DNA of 64,000 nt from positions 7,800 to 71,799 of the forward strand of contig JAQBDA010000315.1 of assembly GCA_032124675.1 (NCBI GenBank), written 5' to 3'. A program made the position numbers and the translations under genes. The DNA is from Chloroflexota bacterium. GTDB taxonomy: Bacteria; Chloroflexota; Anaerolineae; Anaerolineales; UBA4823. A model generated the notes under the pieces. The model searched no databases. It was not told the origin of the DNA and worked only from the letters and a program-made list of their open reading frames with translations. Shown here in pieces: positions 9,092 to 33,402 of the stretch. Position 1 is the first letter of the stretch, and the number at the start of each line of letters is the position of its first letter.

Positions 9092-10981
9092 CTATGCCTG
9101 GCGGCGGGCTTCGAAATAGGCCTGTGAGAGCCGCTGTATGGCGATCAGGAAGCCCTCGCCCTGTCGTTGGTGGCCGCGCCAGATCTCAGGGATCATCGTG
9201 CCGTGATAATCACCGATGACCTGGAAGAACTGCACCCAGTCGATGGTGCCTTCGCCGATCTGCAGGCCTTCCCCGTCCAGCCCGGCGCCATCCGCCAGGT
9301 GCAGGTGGCGGATAAAGGGAAGCAGAATCCGCACCTGCTCGTAAAAATCAGCATGCGCCCAGTTGCAGTACAGCTTGGTGTGGGAAGTATCGAAGCACAT
9401 ATTAAGCCCCATGGAAGTGATAAAGTCGCGGATCTCGTGAGCGTCCATGAAGGCGTTGGTCAGCCACTGCCCGCCGAAGTACCAGGGGTGCGGGGGCAGG
9501 TTTTCCAGCAGCAGCTCGACGCCGTCGTAATCCAGCTCGTTCACCGAGCGGCGCAGGTTATCGTAGAGCTTATCGCGCTCCAGGACGGGATGGTCCAGGC
9601 TCATAGCTCCGGGGTGGATGACGACTTTAGGTGTGTCGGTGAAGCAGGGCGCCATCTCGCGAGTCAGGTTGATCGATTTCTGCATCAGCTCGACCGAGTC
9701 ACTGCGCTGGCGTTCGTTCAGCGAGCACAGGTCGACCAGTGTGCGGTCCCAGAATTCGGGGGCGTGCACGACCAGCTTGAGCGCATGTTTCCCACCGGGG
9801 TAATGTTCGTCCAGGTCCTGGTCGGTGAAGTGGTACTCCAGCATGCGCGGTTTATATACCAGCATGTCTTCGTAATCCCGGAAGCGAACGGTGAAACCGT
9901 ATTCCATGGGCAGGATTTGATCGGCATCCAGGGTGATGTGGATGCCCAGGTCGCGCTCCAGAAACGGCTCATCCTGCTCGATCACCCGTTCGGATGTACG
10001 ACCCACCAGCTCCGCGTAGCGCTGCGGGGAGATGCCCAATGCAGGTCCTTTGACCGAGACCAGTTCAGACGTGATCACCTCGCCGGGCTGGATCGTGCGT
10101 GCTGCGACCAGGCTCTTGCCGAGCACCTCACGGTTCAGGATCTCGCCGCGGGAGATGAACTTCTCCTCCCCGGTGCCGAGCGCCATCCCAACCTGGCGGA
10201 TATCGCGCACCAGTTTATTGAAGCCTTGCGGCTCGAGGCTGGCAGCATGGTCCGGCCCGTCCATCGTGCGGTCGAGGGTGACGTGGCGTTCGATGATAGA
10301 TGCTCCCATAGCTGAAGCTACCGTGGAGACGGCAATGCCGCGCTCGTGACCCGAGTAACCTACCGGCACGCCAAAGCGGCGCAGCTGGTGCATGAAGCGC
10401 AGGTTGATGTCTTCGAAGGCAGCCGGATAGGTGCTGTTGCAATGCAGCAGCGCGAACTCCGCCCTGCGTTCTCTCAGGAAGCTGGCAGTGATCTCCACTT
10501 CTTCCATGCGCGACATGCCGGTGGAAAGGATGAGCGGCTTTTTCTTCTTTGCCAGATGAGACAGCAGGGGCAGGTTGGTCAGGTCGGCGGAAGCGACCTT
10601 GTAAGCAGGTATGCCCAACTTATCCAGGAAATCGGCGCTTTCGATGTCGAATGCCGAGCACATGAAGGTGATCTTCCTGGCACGGCAGTAATCGACGATG
10701 CGGTGGTATGCCTCATCGGAAAGCTCCACAGTCTGCAAGATCGGCAGCAGGTAGCGCAGGGTCTTTTCACCGGCGTTGGCGTTCTCCAGGTATTTTTTGG
10801 CATACAGATTGTCCAGGACTCGCTTCTGGAACTTGACCGCGTCAGCGCCCGCTCTGACCGAGACGTCGATTAGCTCGATCGCCAGATCGATCAGACCGTT
10901 GTGGTTGACGCCGATCTCTGCGATGATATATGTGGGCTGTCCATCACCGACCAGCCGGTCGCCGATATGGATCAAAGGCAT
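9092..10981 (-). CDS. NeuB-family nonulosonic acid synthase with SAF domain fused to a C-terminal xylose-isomerase-like TIM-barrel (sugar phosphate isomerase/epimerase) domain
   Basis: IIAEIGVNHNG, KFQKR and GYSGHERG (NeuB). GKSLVAARTIQPGEVITSELVSVKGP (SAF). C-terminal VVHAPEF, VIHPGA, LLLENLP, FDTSHTKLY and HLHLADG pattern (AP_endonuc_2-like TIM barrel). ATG 10981 has GGAGG 5 nt upstream, so the track's extra 15 codons were trimmed. Confidence 0.8.
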   Translation of the reverse strand: MPLIHIGDRLVGDGQPTYIIAEIGVNHNGLIDLAIELIDVSVRAGADAVKFQKRVLDNLYAKKYLENANAGEKTLRYLLPILQTVELSDEAYHRIVDYCRARKITFMCSAFDIESADFLDKLGIPAYKVASADLTNLPLLSHLAKKKKPLILSTGMSRMEEVEITASFLRERRAEFALLHCNSTYPAAFEDINLRFMHQLRRFGVPVGYSGHERGIAVSTVASAMGASIIERHVTLDRTMDGPDHAASLEPQGFNKLVRDIRQVGMALGTGEEKFISRGEILNREVLGKSLVAARTIQPGEVITSELVSVKGPALGISPQRYAELVGRTSERVIEQDEPFLERDLGIHITLDADQILPMEYGFTVRFRDYEDMLVYKPRMLEYHFTDQDLDEHYPGGKHALKLVVHAPEFWDRTLVDLCSLNERQRSDSVELMQKSINLTREMAPCFTDTPKVVIHPGAMSLDHPVLERDKLYDNLRRSVNELDYDGVELLLENLPPHPWYFGGQWLTNAFMDAHEIRDFITSMGLNMCFDTSHTKLYCNWAHADFYEQVRILLPFIRHLHLADGAGLDGEGLQIGEGTIDWVQFFQVIGDYHGTMIPEIWRGHQRQGEGFLIAIQRLSQAYFEARRQA

Positions 10982-14573: not shown

Positions 14574-15446
14574 TTAATGATTGCGGCGCAGTTTGTTACG
14601 GGCTTTCATTTCGCTTTCGTATACTTTTTTCTCGCCATCGCCCATGGCGGTCTCGATCACGCGGATGTCGCGTATAAGACGCATCAACCCCCACGGTTCC
14701 ACCGAAGCTGCCTGGTCGCTGCCCCACATCGCCCGGTCCAGGGTGATGTGGCGCTCGATGAAGGCAGCCCCCAGGGTCACGGCGGCGTAGGTGGTCTGCA
14801 GACCGACCTCATGCCCTGAATAGCCAACCGGGCAGTTGAATTCAGCACCCAGGCTGTGGATCATGCGCAGGTTAAGCTCCTCCGGCGGGCAAGGGTAAGT
14901 GCTGGTGCTGTGGGCGATGAGCAGATTCTCGCGTTCGAGCTGACCCACCGCTGCCTTGATCTCATCCATGGTGGACATGCCGGTGGACAGGATTGCCGGT
15001 CTTGCAGTGCGGCGGATCCTCTCCAGCAAAGATGCGTCCGTCAGGCAGGCAGAGGCGATCTTGTAGCAGGGGGGCGAAAACTGCTCGATGAATTCCACCG
15101 AGTCTTCATCCCAGCAGGAGGCAAACCACTGGATGCCTTTCTCCCGGCAGTAGCGATCGATGGCGGCATACCCCTCCTGGCTGAATTCGACCTTGTGACG
15201 GTAATCCAGATAGCTCATCAACCCCCAGGGGGTTTCACGTATCACATTCTGGTATTCTGGGGGTACGGCTTTTATCGGGGTGCGTTTCTGGAATTTGACC
15301 GCATCACAGCCCGCCATCACTGCTACATCGATCAGCCGCCGGGCGATATTCAAATCCCCATTGTGGTTGATGCCGACCTCGGCAATGATAAAGGTCGGGT
15401 TTCCCTCGCCTACCCAGCGCTCTCCAATCTTAATGGCTGCTGCCAT
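14574..15446 (-). CDS. NeuB-family synthase lacking the SAF domain (candidate sugar-phosphate-using NulO-9-P/Kdn-9-P-type synthase)
   Basis: 290 aa. IIAEVGINHNGD, AVKFQKR and GYSGHEVG. Ends shortly after the TIM barrel, with no SAF/antifreeze-like tail. Confidence 0.8.
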   Translation of the reverse strand: MAAAIKIGERWVGEGNPTFIIAEVGINHNGDLNIARRLIDVAVMAGCDAVKFQKRTPIKAVPPEYQNVIRETPWGLMSYLDYRHKVEFSQEGYAAIDRYCREKGIQWFASCWDEDSVEFIEQFSPPCYKIASACLTDASLLERIRRTARPAILSTGMSTMDEIKAAVGQLERENLLIAHSTSTYPCPPEELNLRMIHSLGAEFNCPVGYSGHEVGLQTTYAAVTLGAAFIERHITLDRAMWGSDQAASVEPWGLMRLIRDIRVIETAMGDGEKKVYESEMKARNKLRRNH

Positions 15447-17702: not shown

Positions 17703-18755
17703 TCACCAACTCACGTCTTTCTCGTAGCCCCAGTCGACCAGGGTCTCCCCGGCTGCCTGTTTGAAGACCTGCCGGTCGTGATCGGTGAAAAGCTCCCGCC
17801 ATGTGCCGCGCTGGCCTTTGTTCAGCGAGCCGGCGATCTCGGCAGCTTTCTCCTGTTGCCAGTCGGCATCTGGATTCTGGCCCAGCTCTGCCTGCAGAGC
17901 GTCTTTCAATCCACCGTCCGAGACGTCCACACCAAGGAATGACCACAATTTGCACATCTCTTCCCAGGCGCGCGCCAGCAAGTCTTCGTAGCGTAGGTGG
18001 ATGTAGCGGTCTTCCAGGAGCTGGCGAGCGGCTCGATCTGTGTCTAGGATGTTATGGCTCCAGCCCTGGGCTGTCTGGCGCAGGCCTTTCTCGGTGAAGA
18101 TCGAGCGCTGACCGGTCAGGTAGGGGGATGGATTATCTGCAAAGCTCTGGCGGATGCGGTTGTCTTCGGGGGACAGGTGCTGCTGGCGGTCGATGAACGC
18201 CTGGAAGCGATGCGAGACAGCCGCATCACGCCCATCGCGCACGATGAAGATCAATTTTGCCTCGGGGAACACCTTGACCAGCTTGTGCACTGCATCGCCG
18301 TCCAGCAGGCTGTTCGGGCTTTTATCACCCACCACACAGCCCGGCCCGGACTTGCCCGCCGAACGGGCATCGCGCTCCATGATGAATTCCGCTGCTGCTC
18401 TCAGCACAAGCGGTGAGAGGTCACGACCCTGGTTCCAGCGGTTGCTGCGCCGGACCAGCCATGCGCCTGTGCTTTCATTGGCGACCAGCGATTCAAGCAG
18501 CGGAGGGCGGGTGAAGAAGTGCCCCTGGTAGTTGCAGTGCACCTGCGGGTGGACACGGATCAGCCGTGTGAGCAGCGTGGTCCCAGAGCGGGCATGACCG
18601 AAGATGAAGAACTTGTCCAGCGGGAAGAAGGCTTTGATCTCCTGCACTTCTTCAGGAGTGATGGGGGGTATCTCTCGGTAGTGCGTGTGTCTGACACTTC
18701 CTTTTCGAAATGCGGAAACTGCAAGTTTCAATCGCTGGATAAATGTATTAGACAT
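17703..18755 (-). CDS. sulfotransferase family protein (third, divergent copy)
   Basis: 350 aa. GHARSGTTLLTRL (5'-PSB) and VRDGRDAAVSH (3'-PB). Confidence 0.8.
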   Translation of the reverse strand: MSNTFIQRLKLAVSAFRKGSVRHTHYREIPPITPEEVQEIKAFFPLDKFFIFGHARSGTTLLTRLIRVHPQVHCNYQGHFFTRPPLLESLVANESTGAWLVRRSNRWNQGRDLSPLVLRAAAEFIMERDARSAGKSGPGCVVGDKSPNSLLDGDAVHKLVKVFPEAKLIFIVRDGRDAAVSHRFQAFIDRQQHLSPEDNRIRQSFADNPSPYLTGQRSIFTEKGLRQTAQGWSHNILDTDRAARQLLEDRYIHLRYEDLLARAWEEMCKLWSFLGVDVSDGGLKDALQAELGQNPDADWQQEKAAEIAGSLNKGQRGTWRELFTDHDRQVFKQAAGETLVDWGYEKDVSW

Positions 18756-18759
18756 TAAT

Positions 18760-18777
18760 CAACCACCAAGGCACCAA
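18760..18777. repeat. left arm of an 18-bp perfect inverted repeat bracketing the GxxExxY cassette (lies within an xCACCAAG x3 octamer array, 18763-18786)
   Basis: caaccaccaaggcaccaa at 18760-18777 is the exact reverse complement of 19194-19211. Confidence 0.9.
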
Positions 18778-18787
18778 GACACCAAGT

Positions 18788-19180
18788 TTATATAACAATT
18801 CGCTTGATACCGTTCTTAATCAATGGTACATTGAAATTGATTAAGTATCCCAGCCGTTTATTCATTAGCTTCAAATAGGTAATGAGCTGGGCGGTGTACA
18901 GGGGGTTTCCCCCTTCAACTGCCTTTAGCTCGCATACAATCAGATCTTCATCAAGTACATCAACCCGAAAACCCTGATCAAACCGTAACCCGTCATAGAG
19001 AATTGGAATAGCGGCCTGTTTCTGGAACGATAGATCGTGTTTATGAAGTTCATGACAAAAACAGATTTCGTAGATGCTTTCGAGGAGTCCCGGTCCAAGA
19101 TTGTGATGCACAGCGAAGGCAGCATCCACAATCTGTTTCCCAATCCGATCTTCTTCTAAAGAAACCTTAGCAAAACTCAT
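18788..19180 (-). CDS. GxxExxY protein (PD-(D/E)xK-like small protein family)
   Basis: 130 aa. Eponymous GLLESIY motif, DVLDEDLIVCELKA core and a C-terminal GYLINFN...GIKRIV tail. Visibly lower GC than its neighbours. Confidence 0.85.
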   Translation of the reverse strand: MSFAKVSLEEDRIGKQIVDAAFAVHHNLGPGLLESIYEICFCHELHKHDLSFQKQAAIPILYDGLRFDQGFRVDVLDEDLIVCELKAVEGGNPLYTAQLITYLKLMNKRLGYLINFNVPLIKNGIKRIVI

Positions 19181-19193
19181 AAATCTCGGTGAT

Positions 19194-19211
19194 TTGGTGC
19201 CTTGGTGGTTG
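19194..19211. repeat. right arm of the 18-bp perfect inverted repeat bracketing the GxxExxY cassette
   Basis: ttggtgccttggtggttg at 19194-19211. Lies 3 nt from the stop codon (19215-19217) of the upstream cluster gene. Confidence 0.9.
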
Positions 19212-19214
19212 GAA

Positions 19215-20642
19215 TCATTCCGTTAAGCTGAGTAACGAGAGGAAAAATTCAGCCGTGCGCTTGCCGGAGCTGCCATCGGTGTAAGTACATTCCCGCTCCA
19301 GGAAGCGGCGCTGAGCGTCCAGGTCGGTTTGAGGGTTTTGCAGATACTCGTTGATCGCATCACATAATTGACTCTCATCCAGCGCCACTTTGCCGGCACC
19401 AGACGTGCGGAAACGGGAATGGGTGGGCCAGACCCCGATCTGCGACATCGGCACCCAGTACTTCCCCGGGTAGCCCTGCTGCGAATCGATGCACACGCTG
19501 ACCGTGGGTCGCCCCTGGAAAGCCGCTTCTACACACATTGTCGAATAAACGGTCAGGAAAATATCCGAATGCGCCATCATCGAAGTGCGTTCGGTCACAT
19601 CCTCGCCGGAATAATGCCCCAACGATCCCAGCGGCACCGGCTCGATGACATGGATATGAGCGTTTTCCTCTGCCAGCTGGCGGATGCGGTCGGCCTCAGC
19701 CACATAATGCCCGCTCATATGGATCGGGTGCAGGCGCACCAGGAGCTGCGCTGGAGCCGACAGCCTGCCGGAGACCACCAGGCTCGCCAGCGCCTCCACA
19801 TTTTGAATGTTGGGCGACCAGCTGACGAAGCTGCTGGCGTAGGACAGCAGAACGCGGTCGGGGTCCAGCCCGTGCTGGCGGAAATAATCCTGCCGCGGCA
19901 GAACCCACTCATCGCGCACGTAGTTATCGTAGGGCGGCATGCCGCCAACATTGACGCCCTCCGGGAGCCAATCGGCGCCGCCCACCAGCTCCTGCTTCTG
20001 GATCTCCGACCAGCAAGTGATCCAGTCCACCTTTGCGCCGGGTAAGCCGTAGCTGCTGGAGCTGTCCCAGCTGATGATGGCGGCCGCGGTCTGTATCCCC
20101 CGGGCAGCCGCCTGGCGCAAGATGAAGCGGTCCTGGCGGAAGCCCGGCGAACCGGCGATCACCAGAGCCGGGCGGTACTTATCGAATAGGTCGGCGTAGA
20201 TATCTGGCGTGAAGCGAGACTGATATGCCTGCAGAGCGCGGCGCAGCGTGTAGGAGCGGCGTATCAGGCGTGCAGCGGCTTCCATCAGAGGGAAGAGCTG
20301 GCGGCGGCGAGCATGGGCTTCACTCTTCACCTGCTGGATATAGCTGTCGACCACCGCCAGGTTGATCCTGCCGGCCGCACCGGCGCGGCGCAAGAAATCC
20401 AGCCACCACTGCACGGTTGGTGAAACCGTTTTGGTGTACTCCTGCACCTGGTCCAGGCGCAGGCCTTCGATAGTCAGCCCGGGTCGTCCAAAGCGAGCGG
20501 CGATCGCCTCTTTGGTATTATCTTCGGTAAATAAAATGACCTCAAATCCGGCATCCAGCAGGTGGGCGACGATATCGCTCTGCAGGAAGTAGAAGGCTGC
20601 CAGCCCGTGGTCAGCGACGATGAATACGCGTTGCGGGGACAT
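19215..20642 (-). CDS. GT-B-like HP-motif transferase (distant Capsule_synth/TagF-like); function uncertain
   Basis: 475 aa. LVRLHPIH followed by SDIFLTVYSTMCVEAAFQGRPTV. N-terminal Rossmann-like VFIVADHG. Architecture parallels 7382-9058 and 33399-35015, but similarity is weak. Confidence 0.45.
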   Translation of the reverse strand: MSPQRVFIVADHGLAAFYFLQSDIVAHLLDAGFEVILFTEDNTKEAIAARFGRPGLTIEGLRLDQVQEYTKTVSPTVQWWLDFLRRAGAAGRINLAVVDSYIQQVKSEAHARRRQLFPLMEAAARLIRRSYTLRRALQAYQSRFTPDIYADLFDKYRPALVIAGSPGFRQDRFILRQAAARGIQTAAAIISWDSSSSYGLPGAKVDWITCWSEIQKQELVGGADWLPEGVNVGGMPPYDNYVRDEWVLPRQDYFRQHGLDPDRVLLSYASSFVSWSPNIQNVEALASLVVSGRLSAPAQLLVRLHPIHMSGHYVAEADRIRQLAEENAHIHVIEPVPLGSLGHYSGEDVTERTSMMAHSDIFLTVYSTMCVEAAFQGRPTVSVCIDSQQGYPGKYWVPMSQIGVWPTHSRFRTSGAGKVALDESQLCDAINEYLQNPQTDLDAQRRFLERECTYTDGSSGKRTAEFFLSLLSLTE

Positions 20643-24505: not shown

Positions 24506-25394
24506 AAAGGGGGAGCCATGCCTGGCGGGGGAACAGGCGCGTTACAAGGCGGCGGTGGAATAAGCCCCATTTCCGCTTGCGCCGCACGCCTTTCTCCGCC
24601 ACAGGAAACGCGTCTCTCGCTAGGTCGTTTCCCGTGTGGGACGCAACAGGACGTGCCAATGCCGTCAGGTAGAGTGGGATAAGACTAGAGCGCGGCCGAC
24701 CATGGTGCTGTACGCTCAGCAGTTCGAAACCGCTCTTTTCCAGGGTCTGGGCCAGCGTGTGCGGGCTGTAAGATACCAGGTGGGCGACCTCGAAGCAGTC
24801 ATGGGCATACAGGTTAGGCACTTCGACAAGCAGCCAACCGCCGGGAGCCAGCAGCGTCTTTCTCAGGTCAATCAGATATAGGACCGGGTTGGGGATATGC
24901 TCCAGGACATGCGCCATGCTGACCAGGTCAAAGGCCGGCAGCCCGGCAGCTTTGATCTCTTCCAGCGTGGAGAATACGGTCAACCCCTGGTCGCGGGTGT
25001 AGCTGCGGTACGCCTCGCCAGGCTCCAGACCTACGGATTGGCAGCTGAAGCCGAGATTCAAACGCTGCATCAGCAGTCCCGCTGAGCTGCCGATATCCAG
25101 GTGGTTCCGGACTTCCGGGATCCGGTCCTGGATGAAGCTGAAAAGTGCTTCAGCCCGCAGCCGCTGGATTGCCAGGTCTTTCGCTCCCGGTCCGGCGCTG
25201 CCCTGGTATAGCAGGCGGTATTCCTGTTCGTAAAAGGTCTCCAGCTCCTCGTCCGACATGCGCGGTGACTGGTAGACCAGACCACAGGCGGAACAAAGCT
25301 GGTTCGCTACCGTCTGTTCTCGGAAGCTGCGCCGGTCGAATAGACTGCTCCCAATGCTGCCGCACAGCGGGCAGCTCAGGACATCGATGCTCAT
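24495..25394 (-). CDS. class I SAM-dependent methyltransferase with N-terminal Cys4 zinc ribbon
   Basis: 299 aa. CPLCGS...CSACGLVY, then LDIGSSAGLL (motif I) and AHVLEH. Confidence 0.8.
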   Translation of the reverse strand: MSIDVLSCPLCGSIGSSLFDRRSFREQTVANQLCSACGLVYQSPRMSDEELETFYEQEYRLLYQGSAGPGAKDLAIQRLRAEALFSFIQDRIPEVRNHLDIGSSAGLLMQRLNLGFSCQSVGLEPGEAYRSYTRDQGLTVFSTLEEIKAAGLPAFDLVSMAHVLEHIPNPVLYLIDLRKTLLAPGGWLLVEVPNLYAHDCFEVAHLVSYSPHTLAQTLEKSGFELLSVQHHGRPRSSLIPLYLTALARPVASHTGNDLARDAFPVAEKGVRRKRKWGLFHRRLVTRLFPRQAWLPLSNS

Positions 25395-27019
25395 TGCGGT
25401 CGGATGGCGTAAATTACAAAGTTTTCGATGCGCACGATCTCCTCGGCGAAATCGCAGGCAAGGGGGATCTCTTTGCTCTTGAATACCACATGCGTGATGC
25501 CATAATCATCGACCAGTGCCTGGAGCTGCGAGCACTTTTCGGCTCCCCCCGATTTGTAAAATTGGCCGGCACGCTGGACGCGGTCGTACCATTCGAGCAC
25601 TTCCACATCTTTATATGGATGAGATTTCCAGTTGATAAAGGTCGGTACTCCGGTGTACAGGCGGAAGTCGTCGAAATAATTATCTGTCGGCGGGATCATG
25701 TAAAGCTCTCCGGCGCGGCGGTTCTCGCGTACGTAATCCATCATCTGCACCAGACGGCGCTCCCTGCGACCGGAGCCGTACATGTCCTGCAGGTTTAAAC
25801 CACCGCCGACATTGATAAACACCACGTAGAGAGCCAGCGGCAGGAAGACCATCAGGAATTTCGGGTCGTTCATTCTAAGAAGGTCGATGAGACCGGACGC
25901 GATAAAGGCGATGATCAGCGCAGTCGATAGCGGCACCAGCAGGACCGATACGCGCCAGGGAGCCATCAAAGCCAGACTGTCGCTGCTAGTGAGCAGCTGC
26001 ACCAGGCTGACGACCACGCCGCCAACGAACAGCGATAGCATGATGTAAAATAGCCGCCGGTTGCGGAATGCCAGGATCAAACCCACCACCATGATCGCCA
26101 TCTGGAGGTTGGCGGTCGCGTTCCAGAATGATGCCGGAACAGCATGGTGCGGGATGCGCTCGTGCACGATGATATGCAGCGCTGTGCTCGAGGCCTCCGG
26201 CGATGTGGCGCTCAGCGCGGTCTGGTTGTGCAAGATCACAGGCAGCACGAATACCAGAGTGAACAGACCCAAGAATAACGGCTGCCGGGCTGCACGTATA
26301 ACCTTTTCGAGCGAAAACGGCCGCAGTGCCTGGGCATCTCGCAGGTTATCGGCGAATAGGATCAGCAGGTAGGCAATTGTGATCAGGGCTCCGCTCATCA
26401 GGTAAGCGGAGTGGAACAGCGCAGTCACGCCAACCAGGAACGCCGCCAGGTAGTATTTCCTCTTCAAGAAAGTGAAGATCGAGAGCAGCAGCAGGACGCC
26501 GAAGACACTGTTCTGGAACTCGATACCCAGCAGGTACTGCCCGGCTACCCCGGTATGCAGAAACTCGATATTTAAGCCGTAAACTTTCTCAACGCGTACA
26601 ATCGCCCAGCGGGCATGGGCGAGAAAGAACAGGGTGAAAAAAGCCATCTGCTTGGTCAGCGACCACTTGCCTTTATTGATCACTGCCATTATGCCCATGA
26701 TGCTGAATATATAGATACCGAGGATAACAGCATAGTACAGGTAAAACAGGTTTTCATTTAGCAAGGCGGTGGCGTATATCAGGCTGCTGAAGACAGGCAG
26801 CGGGTCGACTGTGTTTGCCAGCCAGTCGGCCGCTAAGTACCCTCTACCGGCCTGCGCCAGCCCGTGCAGGAACTTGGTGTTCTGGTTGCCTTCGTACAGC
26901 GGGGACTGGGTGTAAGCAACCGCAAAGACTGCAGCCACCAGCAGCCATAGGCCGATCCTGGCAATGACCTTCACTACGGGAGGGATCTTGATGTCCGGTG
27001 TGACGGCGTCCATCAGCAT
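25391..27019 (-). CDS. polytopic membrane protein with C-terminal soluble domain (unknown; polymerase/GT-C-like candidate)
   Basis: Many long hydrophobic segments followed by a roughly 150-aa hydrophilic tail. The track start 27085 would overlap the upstream gene by 62 nt, so ATG 27019 (MLMDAVTPD...) is preferred. No family recognised. Confidence 0.6.
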   Translation of the reverse strand: MLMDAVTPDIKIPPVVKVIARIGLWLLVAAVFAVAYTQSPLYEGNQNTKFLHGLAQAGRGYLAADWLANTVDPLPVFSSLIYATALLNENLFYLYYAVILGIYIFSIMGIMAVINKGKWSLTKQMAFFTLFFLAHARWAIVRVEKVYGLNIEFLHTGVAGQYLLGIEFQNSVFGVLLLLSIFTFLKRKYYLAAFLVGVTALFHSAYLMSGALITIAYLLILFADNLRDAQALRPFSLEKVIRAARQPLFLGLFTLVFVLPVILHNQTALSATSPEASSTALHIIVHERIPHHAVPASFWNATANLQMAIMVVGLILAFRNRRLFYIMLSLFVGGVVVSLVQLLTSSDSLALMAPWRVSVLLVPLSTALIIAFIASGLIDLLRMNDPKFLMVFLPLALYVVFINVGGGLNLQDMYGSGRRERRLVQMMDYVRENRRAGELYMIPPTDNYFDDFRLYTGVPTFINWKSHPYKDVEVLEWYDRVQRAGQFYKSGGAEKCSQLQALVDDYGITHVVFKSKEIPLACDFAEEIVRIENFVIYAIRPQ

Positions 27020-27023
27020 ATAC

Positions 27024-27848
27024 TTAGCCACCGACCCCGTTCCTCGCATCGATAGTTCGATAGTCTTTGGGCTGGACGAGAGCATTGATCTGTGCCAGGT
27101 CCGGGTTGTCCTTTGCGAACTCCAGCACTTCCAGCCAGGTGAAATCGTCCCGCCAGTCGAAGTGGGCGGCGATCGATCTCAGCAGTTCCAGATCCTGAGC
27201 GGTATCGACCGTCCAGCGCAGATCGCCGTGATCGTTATCGTGGTTCAGCAGCCGGATGCGGAAACGCTCGGGCTGTTCGTAAAAGAAGGGCATCACATGC
27301 TCGCGCTGGTGGGGCTGGTCCGCCTCGCTCCATGCCAGTTCCAGCCCGGAAAATGAACAGACCTCGATATCCAATCCGACCGGATATGTGCGTCCCCAGG
27401 GCGGCGGCAGGCGGTTAGCGACGAAGTCGTAGGGATATGGCGAGAGCGGTGCGTCGTGGCCTGCGGCTCGGGATTCGCTTCCCTCGGAGCCGGTGAAGGT
27501 AGCGACGGCTTCATCGATCAAGCCCGGATCGATCAGGGGACAGTCAGCAGTGATGCGCACCACGATATCCGCCCGGTGCTGCCGGGCAGCCTGGTAGTAG
27601 CGGTCAAGCACATCAAAGGCACTGCCGCGGTAGACAGGGTAGCCGCGTTCCTGGCAAAGCGCCTGGACAGCATCATCGGAAGGAGCAGTGGTGGTGGCGA
27701 CGATGACTTCAGCCATGCTTTGAGCACGCCGTGTGCGCTCTACAACCCAGGCAAGCATCGGCTTACCCCCGATATCCAACAGCACCTTATCGGGCAGCCG
27801 GGAGGAGGCCATACGGGCCTGGATGATAGCGATTGTTTTGGGTCTCAT
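27024..27848 (-). CDS. SpsF/PseF-like cytidylyltransferase (CTP_transf_3 family)
   Basis: 274 aa. AIIQARMASSRLPDKVL N-terminal signature typical of the SpsF/FlmC-type cytidylyltransferase group. Confidence 0.75.
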   Translation of the reverse strand: MRPKTIAIIQARMASSRLPDKVLLDIGGKPMLAWVVERTRRAQSMAEVIVATTTAPSDDAVQALCQERGYPVYRGSAFDVLDRYYQAARQHRADIVVRITADCPLIDPGLIDEAVATFTGSEGSESRAAGHDAPLSPYPYDFVANRLPPPWGRTYPVGLDIEVCSFSGLELAWSEADQPHQREHVMPFFYEQPERFRIRLLNHDNDHGDLRWTVDTAQDLELLRSIAAHFDWRDDFTWLEVLEFAKDNPDLAQINALVQPKDYRTIDARNGVGG

Positions 27849-27854
27849 AAATAG

Positions 27855-28952
27855 TTATTGGCGGGCAGCGAGTGCCATGTCGTAGGCACGCAGCAGGTGC
27901 TGGAAGTTCTCTTCCCAGTTCGCGCGTTCTTCGGCAATACGGCGGGCGGAGCGACCCATAGCTGCCAGTTGTGAGCGTTGGCTGACAGCGTTCAGGATCG
28001 CTTCTGACAGAGCGTCTGCGGAGCCGTCGGCGAACAACCATCCATTCACGTCTGGCTGTACCCACTCGCGGTTGCCCGGGATGTCGGATACGATGGCTGG
28101 TCTGCCGCAGGCCATCGCCTCCAGGAGAGAGATGGACGTCCCATCGCTGTGCGAGGCACTGATGTACAGGTCGCTGGAGCGGTAGTAACGCGGCAGGTCC
28201 GCCTGGCTGACCTGCCCTGGGAACAGCACCTGTTCATGCACACCGCCTTGCTGGATGACCTGTCTCAGAACAGACGCCTGCGACCCGTTACCGAGCATCA
28301 CCAGGCGCAGCTCCGGGTACTGGCGGGCAGCCTGCACGAAGGCTCTGGCGATCACATCGACGCCGTAGATCTGCTCCCAGCCGCGGGTGGAAAGCAGGGT
28401 GAAGGTCGCTTTGCAACCCGGTTCGGCGCCGGGCGTGTAGCGTTCCAGATCCGCGCCCCAGGGGAAGGTCACGATGCGCTCATCGGGCATGCCGTATGAT
28501 CGTGCCAGCAGGCGGATAATGTCAGAGTCGCCGACCATCACTGCACTGCGCTGCAGGGTGTAGCGCGTTGCCCAGCGCCAAAATGCGTCCCGGCTGGCAT
28601 CCTGGATCAGGTCGTATCCCCAGGAAGCGCTGACCAGCGGTCGGTAGCCGCTCAAGGCTACCAGGAATGCGGAGCGCTGCAGTGGTCCGGCATGCACCAG
28701 GTCGGGTTGAATTTCTTTGAGCACCCGTCGCAGGTCGAGCAGCAGGCGTGGTCCGTCCCGCAGTGTGGCGGGTCCTCTCCCGCCTGCCCACCTGACCTGT
28801 TCGATCTCGGCTGGCAGCGGGCGGTCTTCCAGAGCGTACCCGCGCTGCTCTAACTGGAGATAAAACACCCTGTGCCCGGTTTTCGCCAGTGCAGAGAGAA
28901 AGCGGTGGTCGTGGGTGGTGTAGTCGCGGGTGAAATATAAAATACGTGTCAA
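27855..28952 (-). CDS. glycosyltransferase family 4 (GT-B, Glycos_transf_1)
   Basis: 365 aa. EX7E-region SHSDGTSISLLEAMACGRPAIVSDIPGNREWV. Only a TTG start (28952-28950) is available; an in-frame stop lies 2 codons upstream. Confidence 0.85.
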   Translation of the reverse strand: MTRILYFTRDYTTHDHRFLSALAKTGHRVFYLQLEQRGYALEDRPLPAEIEQVRWAGGRGPATLRDGPRLLLDLRRVLKEIQPDLVHAGPLQRSAFLVALSGYRPLVSASWGYDLIQDASRDAFWRWATRYTLQRSAVMVGDSDIIRLLARSYGMPDERIVTFPWGADLERYTPGAEPGCKATFTLLSTRGWEQIYGVDVIARAFVQAARQYPELRLVMLGNGSQASVLRQVIQQGGVHEQVLFPGQVSQADLPRYYRSSDLYISASHSDGTSISLLEAMACGRPAIVSDIPGNREWVQPDVNGWLFADGSADALSEAILNAVSQRSQLAAMGRSARRIAEERANWEENFQHLLRAYDMALAARQ

Positions 28953-28982
28953 GTGTCAAGTTGCCCGGTGTCAGGTGTCAGG
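28946..28982. repeat. heptamer array GTGTCAA GTGTCAA GTTGCCC GGTGTCA GGTGTCA GG
   Basis: Read directly. It spans the GT4 TTG start codon and the stop codon of the four-helix-bundle gene. Confidence 0.85.
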
Positions 28983-29298
28983 CGGATTTCTTTTTACGAA
29001 GAGCGTGTTTTAGACCGCCGATCAATGCTTTGGTTTTGCCGGCTTGATCGTATTGTTCCTGGAATATATCTTCATTGATGTAACCAGCATCTACCGCAGT
29101 ATAGAGCAAAGATTGGACCTCTCCTGCCGAGCGCCTGGCAATGCCTAAGTAGCGAGCGAACTCGATTTGCGAATCACAGTCAAGGCCTTCGGCGATATTC
29201 GTCATAACAGAAACGGAAGCTCGTCGGATCTGGTCCCGTAAGCCCAAGTCTTTAGCAAATGCTCCAGTTTGTGTCAAGTCGTATATCTGCTTTGTCAA
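28978..29298 (-). CDS. four helix bundle protein (23S rRNA IVS / Avd-like family); probably disrupted by an in-frame TAA, full length 28978-29352
   Basis: The 106-aa TTG-started ORF has RRASVSVMTNIAEG and ARRSAGEVQSLL blocks typical of the family. Own translation upstream, in the same frame: ATG 29352 MPLIKRFEDILAW-TAA(29313-29311)-EARKL joins the ORF. The family normally has W-Q at that point. Low GC. Confidence 0.8.
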   Translation of the reverse strand: MTKQIYDLTQTGAFAKDLGLRDQIRRASVSVMTNIAEGLDCDSQIEFARYLGIARRSAGEVQSLLYTAVDAGYINEDIFQEQYDQAGKTKALIGGLKHALRKKKSA

Positions 29299-29429
29299 TT
29301 TGCGTGCCTCTTACCAGGCAAGAATATCTTCAAATCGCTTAATTAAAGGCATAGATATTCCTACTTATCCGATCTAAAAGATTTTCATCTGTCAGATAAC
29401 ATGACACTTGGCACTGGAACACCTGGCAC

Positions 29430-30500
29430 TTATACACTCGATAAATCTCCCCATCTGATCTCCTTCCCCGCCGGGATGTCCCTGATCGCCTTTGTCCCAA
29501 TCACATCATTGATCTCGTAAGGCGGGATCGCTCCTGGGGTGGCGGGGCGCAGCACATCGATCACCTCCCGGGTAATCAGCTCGCCGGGTTGAATGTCTCG
29601 GGCGGCGCGCAGGCAGCGGCGCTGTACGATTACGGTCTGCCCCTCGTTGCTGCTGACCCGTTTGTCCGCGGAGCCCAGAGCGCGCTCCATCTCGCGGGTG
29701 CGGTCGACCATATCGCGCCAGGTGGCGGGGGTCATAGAAAATGGATGGTCGGGACCGGTGCGGCTGTTGTCGTCGGTGAAGTGCTTCTCGATCACGCGCG
29801 CTCCCAGCGCCACTGCCCCTAACACTGTGGCGTGACCGGGCGTGTGGTCGGAGAGCCCCAGGATCAGCTCTGGGAACATGGCCCGGTACGTATTGAGCAC
29901 CTGCAGGTGGATGTGGTCGAAGTTCTCCAGGCTGGCAGTGTAGTTGGTATTGCACTGCATCAGCACCAACAGAGGGTTGATCTGCAGGATGGTGTGAACG
30001 GCGCGCTGCACTTCGCCGATATCCGAAGCACCGCTGGCAAGGATGACCGGCTTGCCCTTGCGGGCGATATGCTCCAGCATCTCCAGCCAGGTGATATCCC
30101 CTGAGCCGATCTTGTGCGCTGGCACGTGTGGGTCGAGCATATCGACGGCGTCGAAGTCATAGGGAGATGAAAAGTAATCGATGCCCACATCAGCACATTT
30201 TTCTTTCAAGACCGGCGTCCATTCGAATGGGATTGAGGCATCCGCATACACTTGAAAAACCGATTTTTTCCAGGCAGACTGGTGGGAAAGTTGCCCTCCC
30301 ATGCTTTTGAAGCCATAATCCGAGACGATCTGAGGGGCACGGAAATTTTGAAACTTGGCGGCATCCGCCCCGGCTTCTTTCGCCAGATGGATAAGCAGTA
30401 TGGCGCGTTCGATCTCTCCATCGTGGTTGGCGGAGATATCAGCGATGAAATACGTGGGGTGATTTTCGCCGATAGTGTGGGGGCCGATTTGGATATCCAT
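29430..30500 (-). CDS. NeuB-family nonulosonic acid synthase with SAF domain (PseI-like)
   Basis: 356 aa. FIADISANHDGE, AAKFQNF and GLSDHTPGHATVLGAVALGARVIEKHF (close to the PseI pattern). C-terminal SAF (RCLRAARDIQPGELITREVIDVLRP). Confidence 0.85.
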   Translation of the reverse strand: MDIQIGPHTIGENHPTYFIADISANHDGEIERAILLIHLAKEAGADAAKFQNFRAPQIVSDYGFKSMGGQLSHQSAWKKSVFQVYADASIPFEWTPVLKEKCADVGIDYFSSPYDFDAVDMLDPHVPAHKIGSGDITWLEMLEHIARKGKPVILASGASDIGEVQRAVHTILQINPLLVLMQCNTNYTASLENFDHIHLQVLNTYRAMFPELILGLSDHTPGHATVLGAVALGARVIEKHFTDDNSRTGPDHPFSMTPATWRDMVDRTREMERALGSADKRVSSNEGQTVIVQRRCLRAARDIQPGELITREVIDVLRPATPGAIPPYEINDVIGTKAIRDIPAGKEIRWGDLSSV

Positions 30501-30518
30501 GCTTGCTTTCCTTATTAT

Positions 30519-31445
30519 TCAATCAAGACGCTGGGCTGCCATGCGCTGGATGCGCTGTGGATAGCCATCAAGGTACTGCTGGTGGAAACGCTCCAGGCCG
30601 GCGGATATATCCGGCGGTTTCTCGCCCAGGGCGCTGGTCAGCTTATCTGTTCGCAGGGTAAGGTTGGGAGAACGGGCGGCCACCAGACTGCTCTGTTCTA
30701 CCAATACGGGGGTGATCAGAGATGCATCCAGGTGAAACTTGTTGGCTACACGGGTGCCAAACTCGTGCTTGCTGAGGCACTCACGGCTTACCACGTGGTA
30801 CAGTCCGGTCAGCTTGTGCTCCAACATCTTGACCAGGATCGCTGCCAGGTCGGTTGCCAGCAGCGGGCAGAAGAATACATCGGTAAACCCCATGACCTGC
30901 ACCCCTGCCTGCAGATTGCTGACAAAGAATTCGCCCAGGCTGCGCCTGCCGCTCATGCTCCAGCCAAAAAGGTTGACTCGGGCGATGATCGCCTCCGGGT
31001 TGGCGCTGGCTACGCGGCGCTCGCCATCCAGCTTGGTTTGGGCGTACACACCCAGCGGATTGGGTGCATCCTGTTCGGTATATTCCCCGCGACGGCCATC
31101 GAACACAGCATCGGTTGAGATGTGCACCAGGCGCGCTCCGCCCCTGGCGACATTGGCAGCCAGTCGGGCAGGTAGATCGCTATTCGTTTGTTGTGCCAGG
31201 ACCGGGTCGGTCTCGCAGGCATCGACGTTTGCCAGCGCTGCGCAGTGGATCACCCAGTCGGGTTGGGTCTGGTCGAGCACCCGTTCCACTGCTCCCAAGG
31301 CGAGCAGGTCGCTCTGCAGCACAGTGAAGGCGCTGGTGTTTAGAAGGTGGTCCTTGGCAGTTCCATATACTTCGTGCTCCGCCGCAGTCTCCAGGGCCAG
31401 GTTCAGACCGAGCAGACCGCTAGCTCCGGTGATGAGGATACGCAT
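30519..31445 (-). CDS. RmlD-like NAD(P)-dependent sugar reductase (dTDP-4-dehydrorhamnose reductase family)
   Basis: Start trimmed to ATG 31445 (MRILITGASGLLG); the track's 24 extra codons lack support. YAQTK catalytic YxxxK. About 308 aa. Confidence 0.75.
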   Translation of the reverse strand: MRILITGASGLLGLNLALETAAEHEVYGTAKDHLLNTSAFTVLQSDLLALGAVERVLDQTQPDWVIHCAALANVDACETDPVLAQQTNSDLPARLAANVARGGARLVHISTDAVFDGRRGEYTEQDAPNPLGVYAQTKLDGERRVASANPEAIIARVNLFGWSMSGRRSLGEFFVSNLQAGVQVMGFTDVFFCPLLATDLAAILVKMLEHKLTGLYHVVSRECLSKHEFGTRVANKFHLDASLITPVLVEQSSLVAARSPNLTLRTDKLTSALGEKPPDISAGLERFHQQYLDGYPQRIQRMAAQRLD

Positions 31446-31513
31446 GATGGTATTTGTCCGCCAAAAGTCAGCAGTGAAAGCGAATAGTGTTTCACTCCTG
31501 ACCTTTGGGCGCT

Positions 31514-32524
31514 TCACTCATCGCCGGTCCAGCCTCCTTCATTCAGCTCGAAAAGTGCGATCATTTCGCGGATTTGGTCGATTGTCAGCCACTGCGGGTT
31601 GGTATCGCTGGCATAACGGAAACCGTCAGGCAGCTGGCGACCTTTTTCCTGCCATTCGTGCCCAAACCAAAGCTCGGTGGTAGGCTGGACGACGTACATG
31701 TCTTCGGTCTCGATGGTCGTGCGGGCTTCATCCTCGTGGATGAGCACCTCGTGCAGTTTCTCGCCAGGGCGGATGCCTATGACATCGATCTCTGCCTGGG
31801 GAGCGATGGCATTAGCCAGGTCGGTGACTCTCATGCTGGGGATCTTCGGCACGAATACTTCACCGCCGAGCATCTGCTCCGTACCCCGTATCACAAAGCG
31901 CACGCTCTGTTCCAGGGTGAGCCAGAAACGGGTCATGCGCCGGTCGGTGATGGTCAGCTTGCCGTCGTGGCGCTGGCGGATGAAGATCGGGATTACGCTG
32001 CCCCGGCTCCCAACGACATTCCCGTAGCGCACGCAGCTGAACCGGGTCGCCGTACCGGCTGCGTAGGCATTGCTCTGCACCAGCAGCTTCTCCGCGGCCA
32101 GTTTGGTGGTGCCGTAAAGGTTGACCGGGTTGACGGCTTTGTCGGTGCTCAGCGCCATCACCTTTGGGACAGACATGTCCAGGGCCGCCTCGACCAAATT
32201 GCTGCTGCCCAGGATATTGGTCTTAATTGCTTCCATGGGGTTATATTCACAGGCCGGCACCTGCTTCAACGCTGCAGCGTGGATGACCACATCCACGCCG
32301 TGCATGGCGCGCCGCAGGCGGTCGAGATCGCGCACATCGCCGATAAAGTAGCGCAGACTCGGGTGGTCGAAACCGCCCACACGCATTTCGTGCTGCTTGA
32401 GCTCATCGCGGCTGAATATGATCAGCTTGGCTGGCGAGTATTCACGCAGCATGACCTCAATGAATTTCTTGCCGAAAGAACCGGTCCCGCCGGTTACTAA
32501 GACGACCTGGTTGCTCCAGTCCAT
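31514..32524 (-). CDS. pseB: UDP-N-acetylglucosamine 4,6-dehydratase (inverting), PseB/FlaA1-type
   Basis: Start trimmed to ATG 32524 (TAATG overlap with the upstream stop). VLVTGGTGSFGKKF, IFSRDELKQHEM, FIGDVRD, STDKAVNPVNLYGTTK, VRYGNVVGSRGSV and MTRFW blocks match recalled H. pylori/C. jejuni PseB almost block for block. Confidence 0.85.
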   Translation of the reverse strand: MDWSNQVVLVTGGTGSFGKKFIEVMLREYSPAKLIIFSRDELKQHEMRVGGFDHPSLRYFIGDVRDLDRLRRAMHGVDVVIHAAALKQVPACEYNPMEAIKTNILGSSNLVEAALDMSVPKVMALSTDKAVNPVNLYGTTKLAAEKLLVQSNAYAAGTATRFSCVRYGNVVGSRGSVIPIFIRQRHDGKLTITDRRMTRFWLTLEQSVRFVIRGTEQMLGGEVFVPKIPSMRVTDLANAIAPQAEIDVIGIRPGEKLHEVLIHEDEARTTIETEDMYVVQPTTELWFGHEWQEKGRQLPDGFRYASDTNPQWLTIDQIREMIALFELNEGGWTGDE

Positions 32525-33402
32525 TATTGTTTTTCCTTTAAAATCACAATCAGCGGGTACTGACCAACCTCCCCGAAATAATGCGGGTAGCGCTCCTCCA
32601 GCCAGTAGAGCAGGCGCAACCAGTAGCGCCCACCCAGCCAGGGGTGGATCAGCGTGCGCAGGAAGCGCACACTTACGCTGCGCCATACGAATATCTCAAG
32701 CGGCATCTCAGCTCCCACTACGGACTGCACCCAGCGAAAATCGTGACGGCTGGTATACGTACCTTTCTGAGTGCTGCCCCCATCAGATTTGGCTTTCCCG
32801 GGTTTGCGCTCCGGACGCGGCTTACCCCGAAGCCGGCTGGCAGCCGAGCGCACCCCCCGGCTGAGGCGCATCAGCGGCTCGAAGGCGCTCATCATCCGGC
32901 TGGAAGGCCAGCCATTTACCACGACAGCCGTGCCGTCCATTGCGAGCAAACGGTTCAGCTCCTGATAAGCCCGCAGGTGCTCGTCTTCCGGTAGGTGGTG
33001 GATGGTGTGTAGGGAGGCGACCGCCTCGAAGGCCTGTTCCTTGAAGGGCAGGTTGGCGATATCGGCGACGACGAACAGTCCGTGGTCCCCGATGCGGGCG
33101 CGCGCTTCCTGCAGTGCGGTGATTGAGATATCGGCACACACCCGGTACCGGTAGCCCTGGGAATATGTCAGATATTCCGGATATTGGATCGGCCCTGATC
33201 CGGCGTCCAGGAAATAACGCCCGGATGGTCTCAGGTGCCGCAGAAGGCGCAAGTGGCAGCGGTGGATGTACTGGCGTGAGACCGGGCGCAGGTCCTCGTA
33301 ATGAGTGTTCTGGTACAGCCCCTCGCTGATCTCCTGCCAGCCAACCTGGTCGTAAAATTCACGCACTTGCTGCTTGATATCTGTCTGGCTGCTCATCATC
33401 AC
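32524..33402 (-). CDS. class I SAM-dependent methyltransferase
   Basis: 292 aa. FLDAGSGP (motif I), VCADIS, and LPFKEQAFEAVASLHTIHHL. Confidence 0.8.
   Translation of the reverse strand: MMMSSQTDIKQQVREFYDQVGWQEISEGLYQNTHYEDLRPVSRQYIHRCHLRLLRHLRPSGRYFLDAGSGPIQYPEYLTYSQGYRYRVCADISITALQEARARIGDHGLFVVADIANLPFKEQAFEAVASLHTIHHLPEDEHLRAYQELNRLLAMDGTAVVVNGWPSSRMMSAFEPLMRLSRGVRSAASRLRGKPRPERKPGKAKSDGGSTQKGTYTSRHDFRWVQSVVGAEMPLEIFVWRSVSVRFLRTLIHPWLGGRYWLRLLYWLEERYPHYFGEVGQYPLIVILKEKQ

Follow-up and report, generated by a model that had tools for sequence, protein, structure and literature searches.

The locus described here raises a simple question: what is a small gene, cut by a single in-frame stop codon and enclosed by arrays of heptamers, doing in the middle of a sugar operon? 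It lies in a 64-kb stretch of DNA (the window, to which all positions refer) from a Chloroflexota (Anaerolineae-like) bacterium, where a cassette carrying a four-helix-bundle (4HB) gene sits flush between the stop codon of a neuB-type gene and the start codon of a GT4 glycosyltransferase gene in a sialic-acid-like sugar operon, with the cassette and both neighbours on the minus strand. The best explanation, to which we give a probability of roughly 60%, is a cassette of the intervening sequence (IVS) type whose arrays pair in the operon transcript and whose reading frame was recently broken.

The upstream (5′) arm of the cassette (29402..29431) is made of four degenerate heptamers (GTGCCA, GTGTTC, GTGCCA, GTGTCA) and starts within the TAA stop codon (29432-29430) of the neuB-type gene (29430..30500; NeuB and SAF domains, Pfam NeuB E 2e-72), which adjoins the cassette. 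The downstream (3′) arm (28946..28982) reads cTGACAC, cTGACAC, an 8-nt degenerate unit CGGGCAAC, TTGACAC and TTGACAC; its first unit contains the TGA stop of the cassette gene and its last unit the TTG start of the GT4 gene. A tandem repeat finder delimited this second array, with a period of 7 and 5.1 copies, and an inverted-repeat search returned 29402-29431 as its counterpart (30 nt, 73% complementary), in agreement with the inverted heptamer arrays proposed as flanks in an earlier reading of this DNA (the original prediction). When the arms are joined by a short loop, one long stem is predicted (-33 kcal/mol, z = -3.6), none of 200 shuffles being as good, and within it the UAA stop of neuB is paired with the UUG start of GT4. 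An S23p open reading frame (ORF) inside inverted repeats able to form a predicted stem, as expected for an element of the IVS type, is thus what we find. The motif count in the 64-kb window is weak by itself (3 versus 1.0 expected), and a chance origin is excluded because the same oriented arrays surround the homologous gene in 80 other loci. The possibility that the arrays are outward-facing -35 boxes (TTGACA) was dropped, since CTGACAC is the commonest unit and there is no promoter-like pair.

These 80 loci with relatives of the gene come from a scan of one genome per species, and belong mostly to Anaerolineae and other Chloroflexota, with a few Verrucomicrobiota. Upstream of the gene, the sense strand holds 2.3 copies of GTGTCA per locus versus 0.35 of the reverse complement; downstream, TGACAC occurs 2.0 times per locus versus 0.01 in the wrong orientation. 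The inverted-repeat score beats all 100 shuffles in 54 of 75 loci, with a median arm of 25 nt and a longest one of 72 nt. The first unit is placed 0-3 nt past the stop of the upstream gene in 37 of 71 loci, and in 26 of 81 a TGACAC unit provides the stop codon of the cassette gene. Within 90 nt of the gene, every frame contains a TGA in 39 of 81 loci on the downstream side and in 14 of 81 on the upstream side. Neighbouring genes are mostly co-directional with the cassette (69 versus 8 loci for the upstream neighbour, 64 versus 14 for the downstream one). Moreover, a neighbour-joining tree contains distinct clades with GTTCCA, GTGCGA or GTGTCG units, each with the same change of unit in both arms. 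The heptamer arrays, (GTGTCAN)n upstream and (NTGACAC)n downstream, form the ends of the cassette itself and are a conserved part of it. In composition, the window cassette has 46% GC and its flanks 60%, and in each of 75 loci the gene is poorer in GC than its flanks, with a mean difference of 9 points. Low GC is a compositional constraint of the cassette and, being found in every locus, old junction-specific lineages included, it gives no date for the insertion.

The gene itself encodes a four-helix-bundle protein of the IVS type (S23p), as the original prediction had recognised. Behind an A+T-rich leader (29353..29401) with a weak Shine-Dalgarno-like AGGA at 29362-29359, the minus-strand frame opens at ATG 29352-29350 and runs through 13 codons (MPLIKRFEDILAW) into a premature TAA at 29313-29311, which closes this first segment (29311..29352); the remaining frame (28978..29310, residues 15-124, EARKLTKQIYDLT...) ends at TGA 28980-28978. 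With Gln restored at the stop, the 124-residue product matches positions 1-105 of the 106 in PF05635 (E 6e-31, 107 bits) and 2-108 of the 109 in TIGR02436 (E 2e-28, 98.7 bits), the curated cut-offs being 33.8 and 24 bits, so that the whole domain is matched above cut-off in both families; the solved Xanthomonas S23p homolog (PDB 2GSC) is matched over residues 8-122 (E 2.5e-13). What the window copy lacks is an intact frame of about 120 residues, owing to the TAA at codon 14, which makes it either a pseudogene or a truncated family member. A homolog search found 2254 proteins, the best 120 of which are 69-85% identical, full length and nearly all of 120-131 residues. In an alignment of 52 taken from the best homologs, M1, L3, F7, E8, W13 and E15 are invariant and Q14 is kept in at least 90%; all 52 are intact, with Gln or Arg at position 14. 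The nearest relative (L083, P0001 in the protein set, 85% identity) has TGG CAA GAG at the stop position, and therefore the lesion in the window amounts to one C-to-T transition, which bears out the claim that a single CAA-to-TAA change at the conserved W-Q codon cuts the N-terminal helix. The same TAA is present in two independent Logan assemblies (L001 and L002), which differ from the window at single-nucleotide polymorphisms 29420 and 29395; with three assemblies in agreement on TAA, and none with CAA at 29311-29313, an assembly error is ruled out.

As for the age of the lesion, the window copy and L083 give a dN/dS of 0.034, their synonymous sites being nearly saturated (pS 0.71). Unique changes, amino-acid versus synonymous, number 7 versus 15 in the window, 9 versus 18 in L083 and 12 versus 23 in L084, a further relative, and hence the window copy has no excess of amino-acid changes and no trace of long relaxation in comparison with these two; two of the changes unique to the window, F57L and V77G, fall on nearly invariant residues. 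As far as can be read from the sequence, the window ORF is a young pseudogene, its frame recently broken by one CAA-to-TAA change. Single in-frame stops at other places are found in the 4HB copies of L030 (the Gln of DQLQR) and L075 (a Tyr). The three stops among the 81 copies of the genome scan, together with a fourth from metagenomic data described below, indicate a sporadic pseudogenisation of these cassettes.

This fourth case belongs to the same species, which carries a second allele, diverged and likewise broken. A scan for GT4 relatives returned 80 metagenome loci (junction counts given below use those with a complete neuB-GT4 junction), and in one of them (L087, contig Ga0210366_10001302) nucleotides 120-670 correspond to window positions 28925-29440. 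The flanks of L087 are 98-99% identical to the window (114/116 at the end of neuB, 1046/1066 in GT4 and 816/825 in the next gene), whereas between about 29440 and 28925 the DNA identity falls to ~65%. The L087 cassette is built on GTGCGA units, carries a stop at the same W-Q codon (...GCC TGG TAG GAG...) and has a frameshift near the C-terminus. The swapped segment extends from the final codons of neuB into GT4, of which it covers about eight initial codons (ATG CGA TTG TTA...), and its breakpoints, being located in the conserved ends of the flanking genes, point to a replacement by homologous recombination. About 13 codons are one transition away from a stop, so that two stops at one codon would be met about once in 13 cases if mutation were uniform; alternatively, the codon may be a shared hot spot (context GCCTGGCAR), or early inactivation may be selected for. 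With a real stop in the window and an L087 allele both stopped and frameshifted, the originally suggested term "decaying" fits this cassette, yet the decay is very recent.

A separate question is whether the cassette supplied the start codon of its downstream neighbour. The only plausible start of the GT4 gene (27855..28952; Pfam Glycos_transf_1 and Glyco_transf_4) is TTG 28952-28950, which is the NTG of the last unit and has an in-frame TGA (28958-28956) two codons upstream; the start can indeed lie only there, within the repeat, as originally pointed out, and both the TTG and codon 2 are inside a perfect TTGACAC unit. The proposal that the insertion reshaped this start had been made with the proviso that cassette-free orthologs starting at the same TTG would speak against it, and this is what was found: the same TTG (TTG GCG CGC), 2-3 nt past the neuB stop, is present in the cassette-free loci L089, L090, L092/L093 and L135. 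The nearest cassette-bearing relatives also start at this codon (TTG GCT CGC in L083, TTG TCT CGC in L084), and in both it falls after or outside a perfect unit. A form of the start with an extra codon (M-X-R-I-L-Y-F) is unlinked to the cassette, with 6 of 12 junctions having it in the presence of the cassette and about 16 of 40 in its absence; its first 7 nt (NTGRCNC) resemble the unit, so that cassette-free loci could be secondary losses keeping one unit. Elsewhere the arrays clearly contribute to coding sequence: in 19 of 56 loci, the downstream ORF cannot start before the NTG of the last unit. In three loci of Verrucomicrobiota (L027, L050 and L057), two units, ATGACAC and CTGACAC, just past the 4HB stop encode MT(H/P)DT, the first residues of a separately encoded C-terminal half of CarB, the large subunit of carbamoyl-phosphate synthase; the gene for the N-terminal half is not adjacent in these loci.

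How long such cassettes have resided at their junctions was approached by clustering of the neighbours. The NeuB-to-GT4 junction is occupied in about 18 loci, window included, the junction from aldehyde:ferredoxin oxidoreductase to class-III aminotransferase in about 10, that from an ABC-2 permease-like to an ABC ATPase-like ORF in 5, and the one between the convergent genes of methylmalonyl-CoA mutase and phosphofructokinase in about 8, besides other recurrent junctions; these labels were checked with Pfam, except those of the ABC-2 permease-like and ABC ATPase-like ORFs, which were read from the sequence. In the neighbour-joining tree, the 4HB proteins cluster by junction and repeat unit, and the NeuB-GT4 copies make up three or four clades. 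In many species the cassette has long occupied the neuB-GT4 junction, in the form of junction-specific lineages, at odds with the recent insertion first envisaged. At the convergent mutase/phosphofructokinase junction (loci L024, L026, L039, L045, L049, L063 and L069), the cassette occurs in both orientations, even in the sister lineages L039 and L049, which suggests inversion between the arrays or repeated insertion.

Turnover can be followed at the neuB-GT4 junction itself. Complete junctions with a 4HB cassette number 12 among the metagenome loci, and about 40 are cassette-free, with the neuB stop at -4 to +64 nt from the GT4 start. Solo units fill several of these cassette-free gaps: GTGTCA in L145, the palindrome GTGTCACGTGACAC in L128/L130 (L128:2464-2500), and others in L141, L165, L156 and L147. 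In L114 (L114:2381-2500) a deletion scar remains, in which one unit joins the final codons of the 4HB frame (IGGFKHSLQ...). Fillers of 452-458 nt found at some neuB-GT4 junctions were rejected as cassettes, because they hold an unrelated 150-residue ORF without arrays or a Pfam match; this ORF, which overlaps the neuB stop (ATGA) and has an HxH motif (L103, L124:2039-2491, L134, L136, L140, L143 and L151), is an ordinary operon gene. In two further loci the cassette is inside feoB (L005:1993-2361 and L011:3081-3449), where the upstream portion encodes FeoB_N and some of the cytosolic helical domain, and a separate downstream ORF encodes the Gate/FeoB_C membrane part. There the cassette acts as an intervening sequence within a protein-coding gene.

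The window holds a second cassette with another cargo. A gene of the GxxExxY family (18788-19180; PF13366, E 7e-37), PD-(D/E)XK-like, is enclosed by inverted octamer arrays at 18760-18786 and 19185-19213, and the whole cassette (18760..19213, minus strand) fills the gap between the stop of the gene at 19215-20642 and the ATG of a sulfotransferase gene at 17703-18755. Homologs in Chloroflexota and Bacteroidota have the same octamers (CACCAAGN / CTTGGTGN and close variants) at operon junctions (loci L167, L168 and L170-L173). In Chloroflexota, homologs occupy the same junction, from a 472-residue gene to the sulfotransferase. The cassette is also found between methylase (N6_N4_Mtase) and helicase/restriction-type (ResIII) genes, in an apparent restriction-modification locus; in Bacteroidota its neighbours are sufB and, in the sufC position, a gene for an ABC-type ATPase. 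Loci L170 and L171 also have tandem empty hairpins of the same units. The assignment of both window cassettes to one class was well founded, since octamer arrays are kept around the GxxExxY homologs and each cassette consists of a single small co-directional gene with inverted tandem-repeat arrays on both sides, flush with its neighbours. Each cargo family keeps its own repeat unit across phyla, a heptamer for 4HB and an octamer for GxxExxY.

Among described systems, the closest relative found is the S23p-encoding IVS in the 23S rRNA of Coxiella. S23p-encoding IVSs of 23S rRNA are known from Coxiella burnetii, and have also been reported for Leptospira, Xanthomonas and Brucella (PMC4990558). 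The Coxiella IVS is a selfish element of 428 nt with an S23p ORF, closed by an inverted-repeat stem and excised by RNase III; tandem heptamers (GACAGAT), whose number varies between strains, adjoin the ORF, which is in reductive evolution (PMC4990558). The window cassette resembles it in the PF05635/S23p protein, in size (about 480 nt), in an ORF located inside stem-forming inverted repeats and prone to decay, in tandem heptamers of variable copy number next to this ORF, and in having its sense strand in the host transcript. It differs in being inserted in a protein-coding operon, flush with a stop and a start codon, and in its GTGTCAN unit present on both sides instead of GACAGAT; moreover, cleavage by RNase III, shown for Coxiella, is presumed by analogy for the window cassette. 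Location in 23S rRNA (helix 45 or 25) does not apply to a cassette placed between neuB and GT4, and no Rfam family was matched in 28700-29700.

Other known systems share fewer traits with it. Integron cassettes are likewise promoter-less single genes that are transcribed from outside, are each tied to an imperfect inverted-repeat site and can be exchanged at a fixed position, but the window cassette has neither a 3′ attC nor a nearby intI, no integrase being found among the neighbours; its arrays stand on both sides instead of forming one attC, and such cassettes are scattered singly at operon junctions. The Avd proteins of diversity-generating retroelements have a distantly related four-helix-bundle fold, and pentameric assembly has been reported for both Avd and S23p. 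The label "Avd-type" of the original prediction was not upheld: neither a reverse transcriptase domain nor a template/variable repeat was found across the genes at 25391-32686, and the solved structures matched by sequence include none of Avd. The Correia or NEMIS elements of Neisseria are small, have terminal inverted repeats and are co-transcribed in operons, where their hairpins, cut by RNase III, alter what becomes of the mRNA; on the other hand, they are devoid of a cargo gene, lack tandem repeats at their ends and duplicate a TA target. The heptamers known as STRR or TAACTGA in cyanobacteria, Beggiatoaceae and Bacteroidetes are intergenic, often directly upstream of starts without a Shine-Dalgarno sequence, with variable copy number and a patchy distribution across phyla (PMC4679880). 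They share with the present arrays the intergenic location and the 7-nt tandem repeats, but are mostly direct arrays of other units without an enclosed gene, and PMC4679880 gives no link with four-helix-bundle proteins. No description of such cassettes outside rRNA was found in the literature, of which coverage was partial, so that absence is unproven.

Since the cassette is co-directional with its neighbours and a promoter/terminator scan detected no promoter-like or terminator-like site in 28800-29600, it is most likely transcribed with the operon. In this transcript, the two arrays would pair into a stem of ~30 bp that places the neuB stop UAA opposite the GT4 start UUG. By analogy with the homologous Coxiella IVS, such a stem might be a substrate of RNase III; at minimum, it would join the stop of neuB to the start of GT4, so that an insert of 480 nt would leave both genes coupled. 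In addition, the sequence of the unit may be read by some factor, possibly the cargo protein itself. A cargo-specific, periodic unit kept despite saturated synonymous sites argues that something reads it, and the choice of the cargo protein, as the sole component that varies with the unit, is speculation. In the genome of the window, the intact protein would no longer be made and the shell of the cassette would stay, as the native junction can be restored only by a precise deletion.

Several observations weigh against this reading of an IVS-type cassette. The arms in the window are merely 73% complementary, and pairing by itself leaves a fixed, cargo-specific, periodic unit unaccounted for. 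Cassettes also lie between convergent genes, where coupling has no purpose. In-phase unit variants are symmetric between both arms, and sense and antisense duplexes do not differ in energy (p = 0.22 with 110-nt flanks, a noisy comparison in which shuffled controls fold strongly too), so that no RNA-specific G-U signature is seen and a role at the DNA level fits equally well. The arrays might then be the ends of a foldback-type mobile or recombining element, whose hairpins or cruciforms drive insertion, inversion, exchange and deletion, with pairing in the RNA being incidental. Besides the symmetry of the arm variants and the lack of an energy difference, this explanation would account for the two orientations at the convergent mutase/phosphofructokinase junction, sister lineages L039 and L049 included, for the solo units or short palindromes at cassette-free junctions (L128/L130, L145, L141 and L165), for the fused unit of L114 and for the tandem empty hairpins of L170 and L171. 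It is a serious alternative that we nevertheless consider doubtful, as no transposase or recombinase is linked to the cassette and the comparison of filled with empty junctions reveals no target-site duplication. Moreover, the strong bias in orientation with respect to the upstream gene (69 versus 8) is unexpected for a purely DNA-level element, and the location of the L087 breakpoints within the flanking genes argues for ordinary homologous recombination instead of movement driven by the element.

The broken frame admits another interpretation, because an unraised amino-acid/synonymous ratio and a second allele stopped at the same codon leave room for a programmed stop or a restart. The stop at codon 14 would then be functional, either releasing a 13-residue leader before translation restarts at TTG 29298, where a listed ORF of 106 residues opens ~9 nt downstream of a GAGG, or being read through at a low level; the intact remainder of the frame and the TAG in the diverged allele of the same species agree with this. 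It is improbable all the same. The 106-residue product would begin without half of helix 1, the invariant W13 and the first 8-11 profile positions (11 in Pfam), the L087 allele is dead because of its added frameshift, and the same-codon coincidence has a probability near 1 in 13 by chance. Moreover, of ~95 loci with a cassette that were read at the DNA level, only L030 and L075 have further internal stops, located at other codons; the 52 homologs in the alignment are intact, with Gln or Arg at position 14, and the host genes use TAA as a stop. A low probability is also given to the version of the original prediction, according to which a low-GC insertion arrived recently between neuB and GT4 and a TTG of its repeat took the place of the native GT4 start. 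The difference of 46% versus 60% GC, the position of the TTG and codon 2 within a perfect unit, the encoding of MT(H/P)DT by the arrays in L027, L050 and L057, and the use of the last NTG as first possible downstream start in 19 of 56 loci are all in its favour. They are outweighed by the same TTG in cassette-free orthologs and in the two nearest cassette-bearing relatives, by a cassette GC lower than that of the flanks in all 75 loci, which has no dating value, and by the occupation of this junction in many species.

With regard to the rest of the window, the genes from 25391 to 32686 encode sugar-pathway enzymes and one membrane protein according to Pfam. Two more NeuB-like coding regions are present on the minus strand (~9980-10972 and 14610-15434), with 32% and 31% identity to the neuB gene at 29430-30500, so that the region may encode several nonulosonic-acid pathways. 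A tblastn search of the window returned no further copies of the cassette. The other low-GC spots (~44.4-44.8 kb and 54.8-56 kb) resemble ordinary intergenic or regulator regions and show no cassette-like ORF when their ORFs are listed and judged by eye, without a Pfam scan. Neither cargo protein, 4HB or GxxExxY, matched the models of anti-phage defence systems.

The single stop codon is in itself ordinary and of minor importance; the class of cassettes to which it belongs is widespread and little described. Annotated PF05635/TIGR02436 and GxxExxY proteins are very numerous in Chloroflexota, Bacteroidota, Verrucomicrobiota and other groups, and as elements only the rRNA-borne copies were found described in the literature. 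The copies outside rRNA share this anatomy of an element, with cargo-specific units across phyla, fixed operon junctions, replacement of alleles within a species and scars made of solo repeats. For annotation, care is needed with start and stop codons beside such arrays, and low GC here does not amount to recent transfer. We tentatively suggest, as a possibility well short of an even chance, that a single general class of intervening cassettes for protein-coding DNA carries the S23p/4HB and GxxExxY genes as cargo, with each protein recognising its own unit. Arrays of the NTGACAC type would offer TGA stops and NTG starts in all three frames together with pairing across the insert, so that the function of the host would survive between coupled genes or inside a gene. 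Examples would be the split feoB of L005 and L011 and the CarB C-terminal half, whose first residues are encoded by units. If this proposal is true, the 4HB and GxxExxY families would gain their first testable activity.

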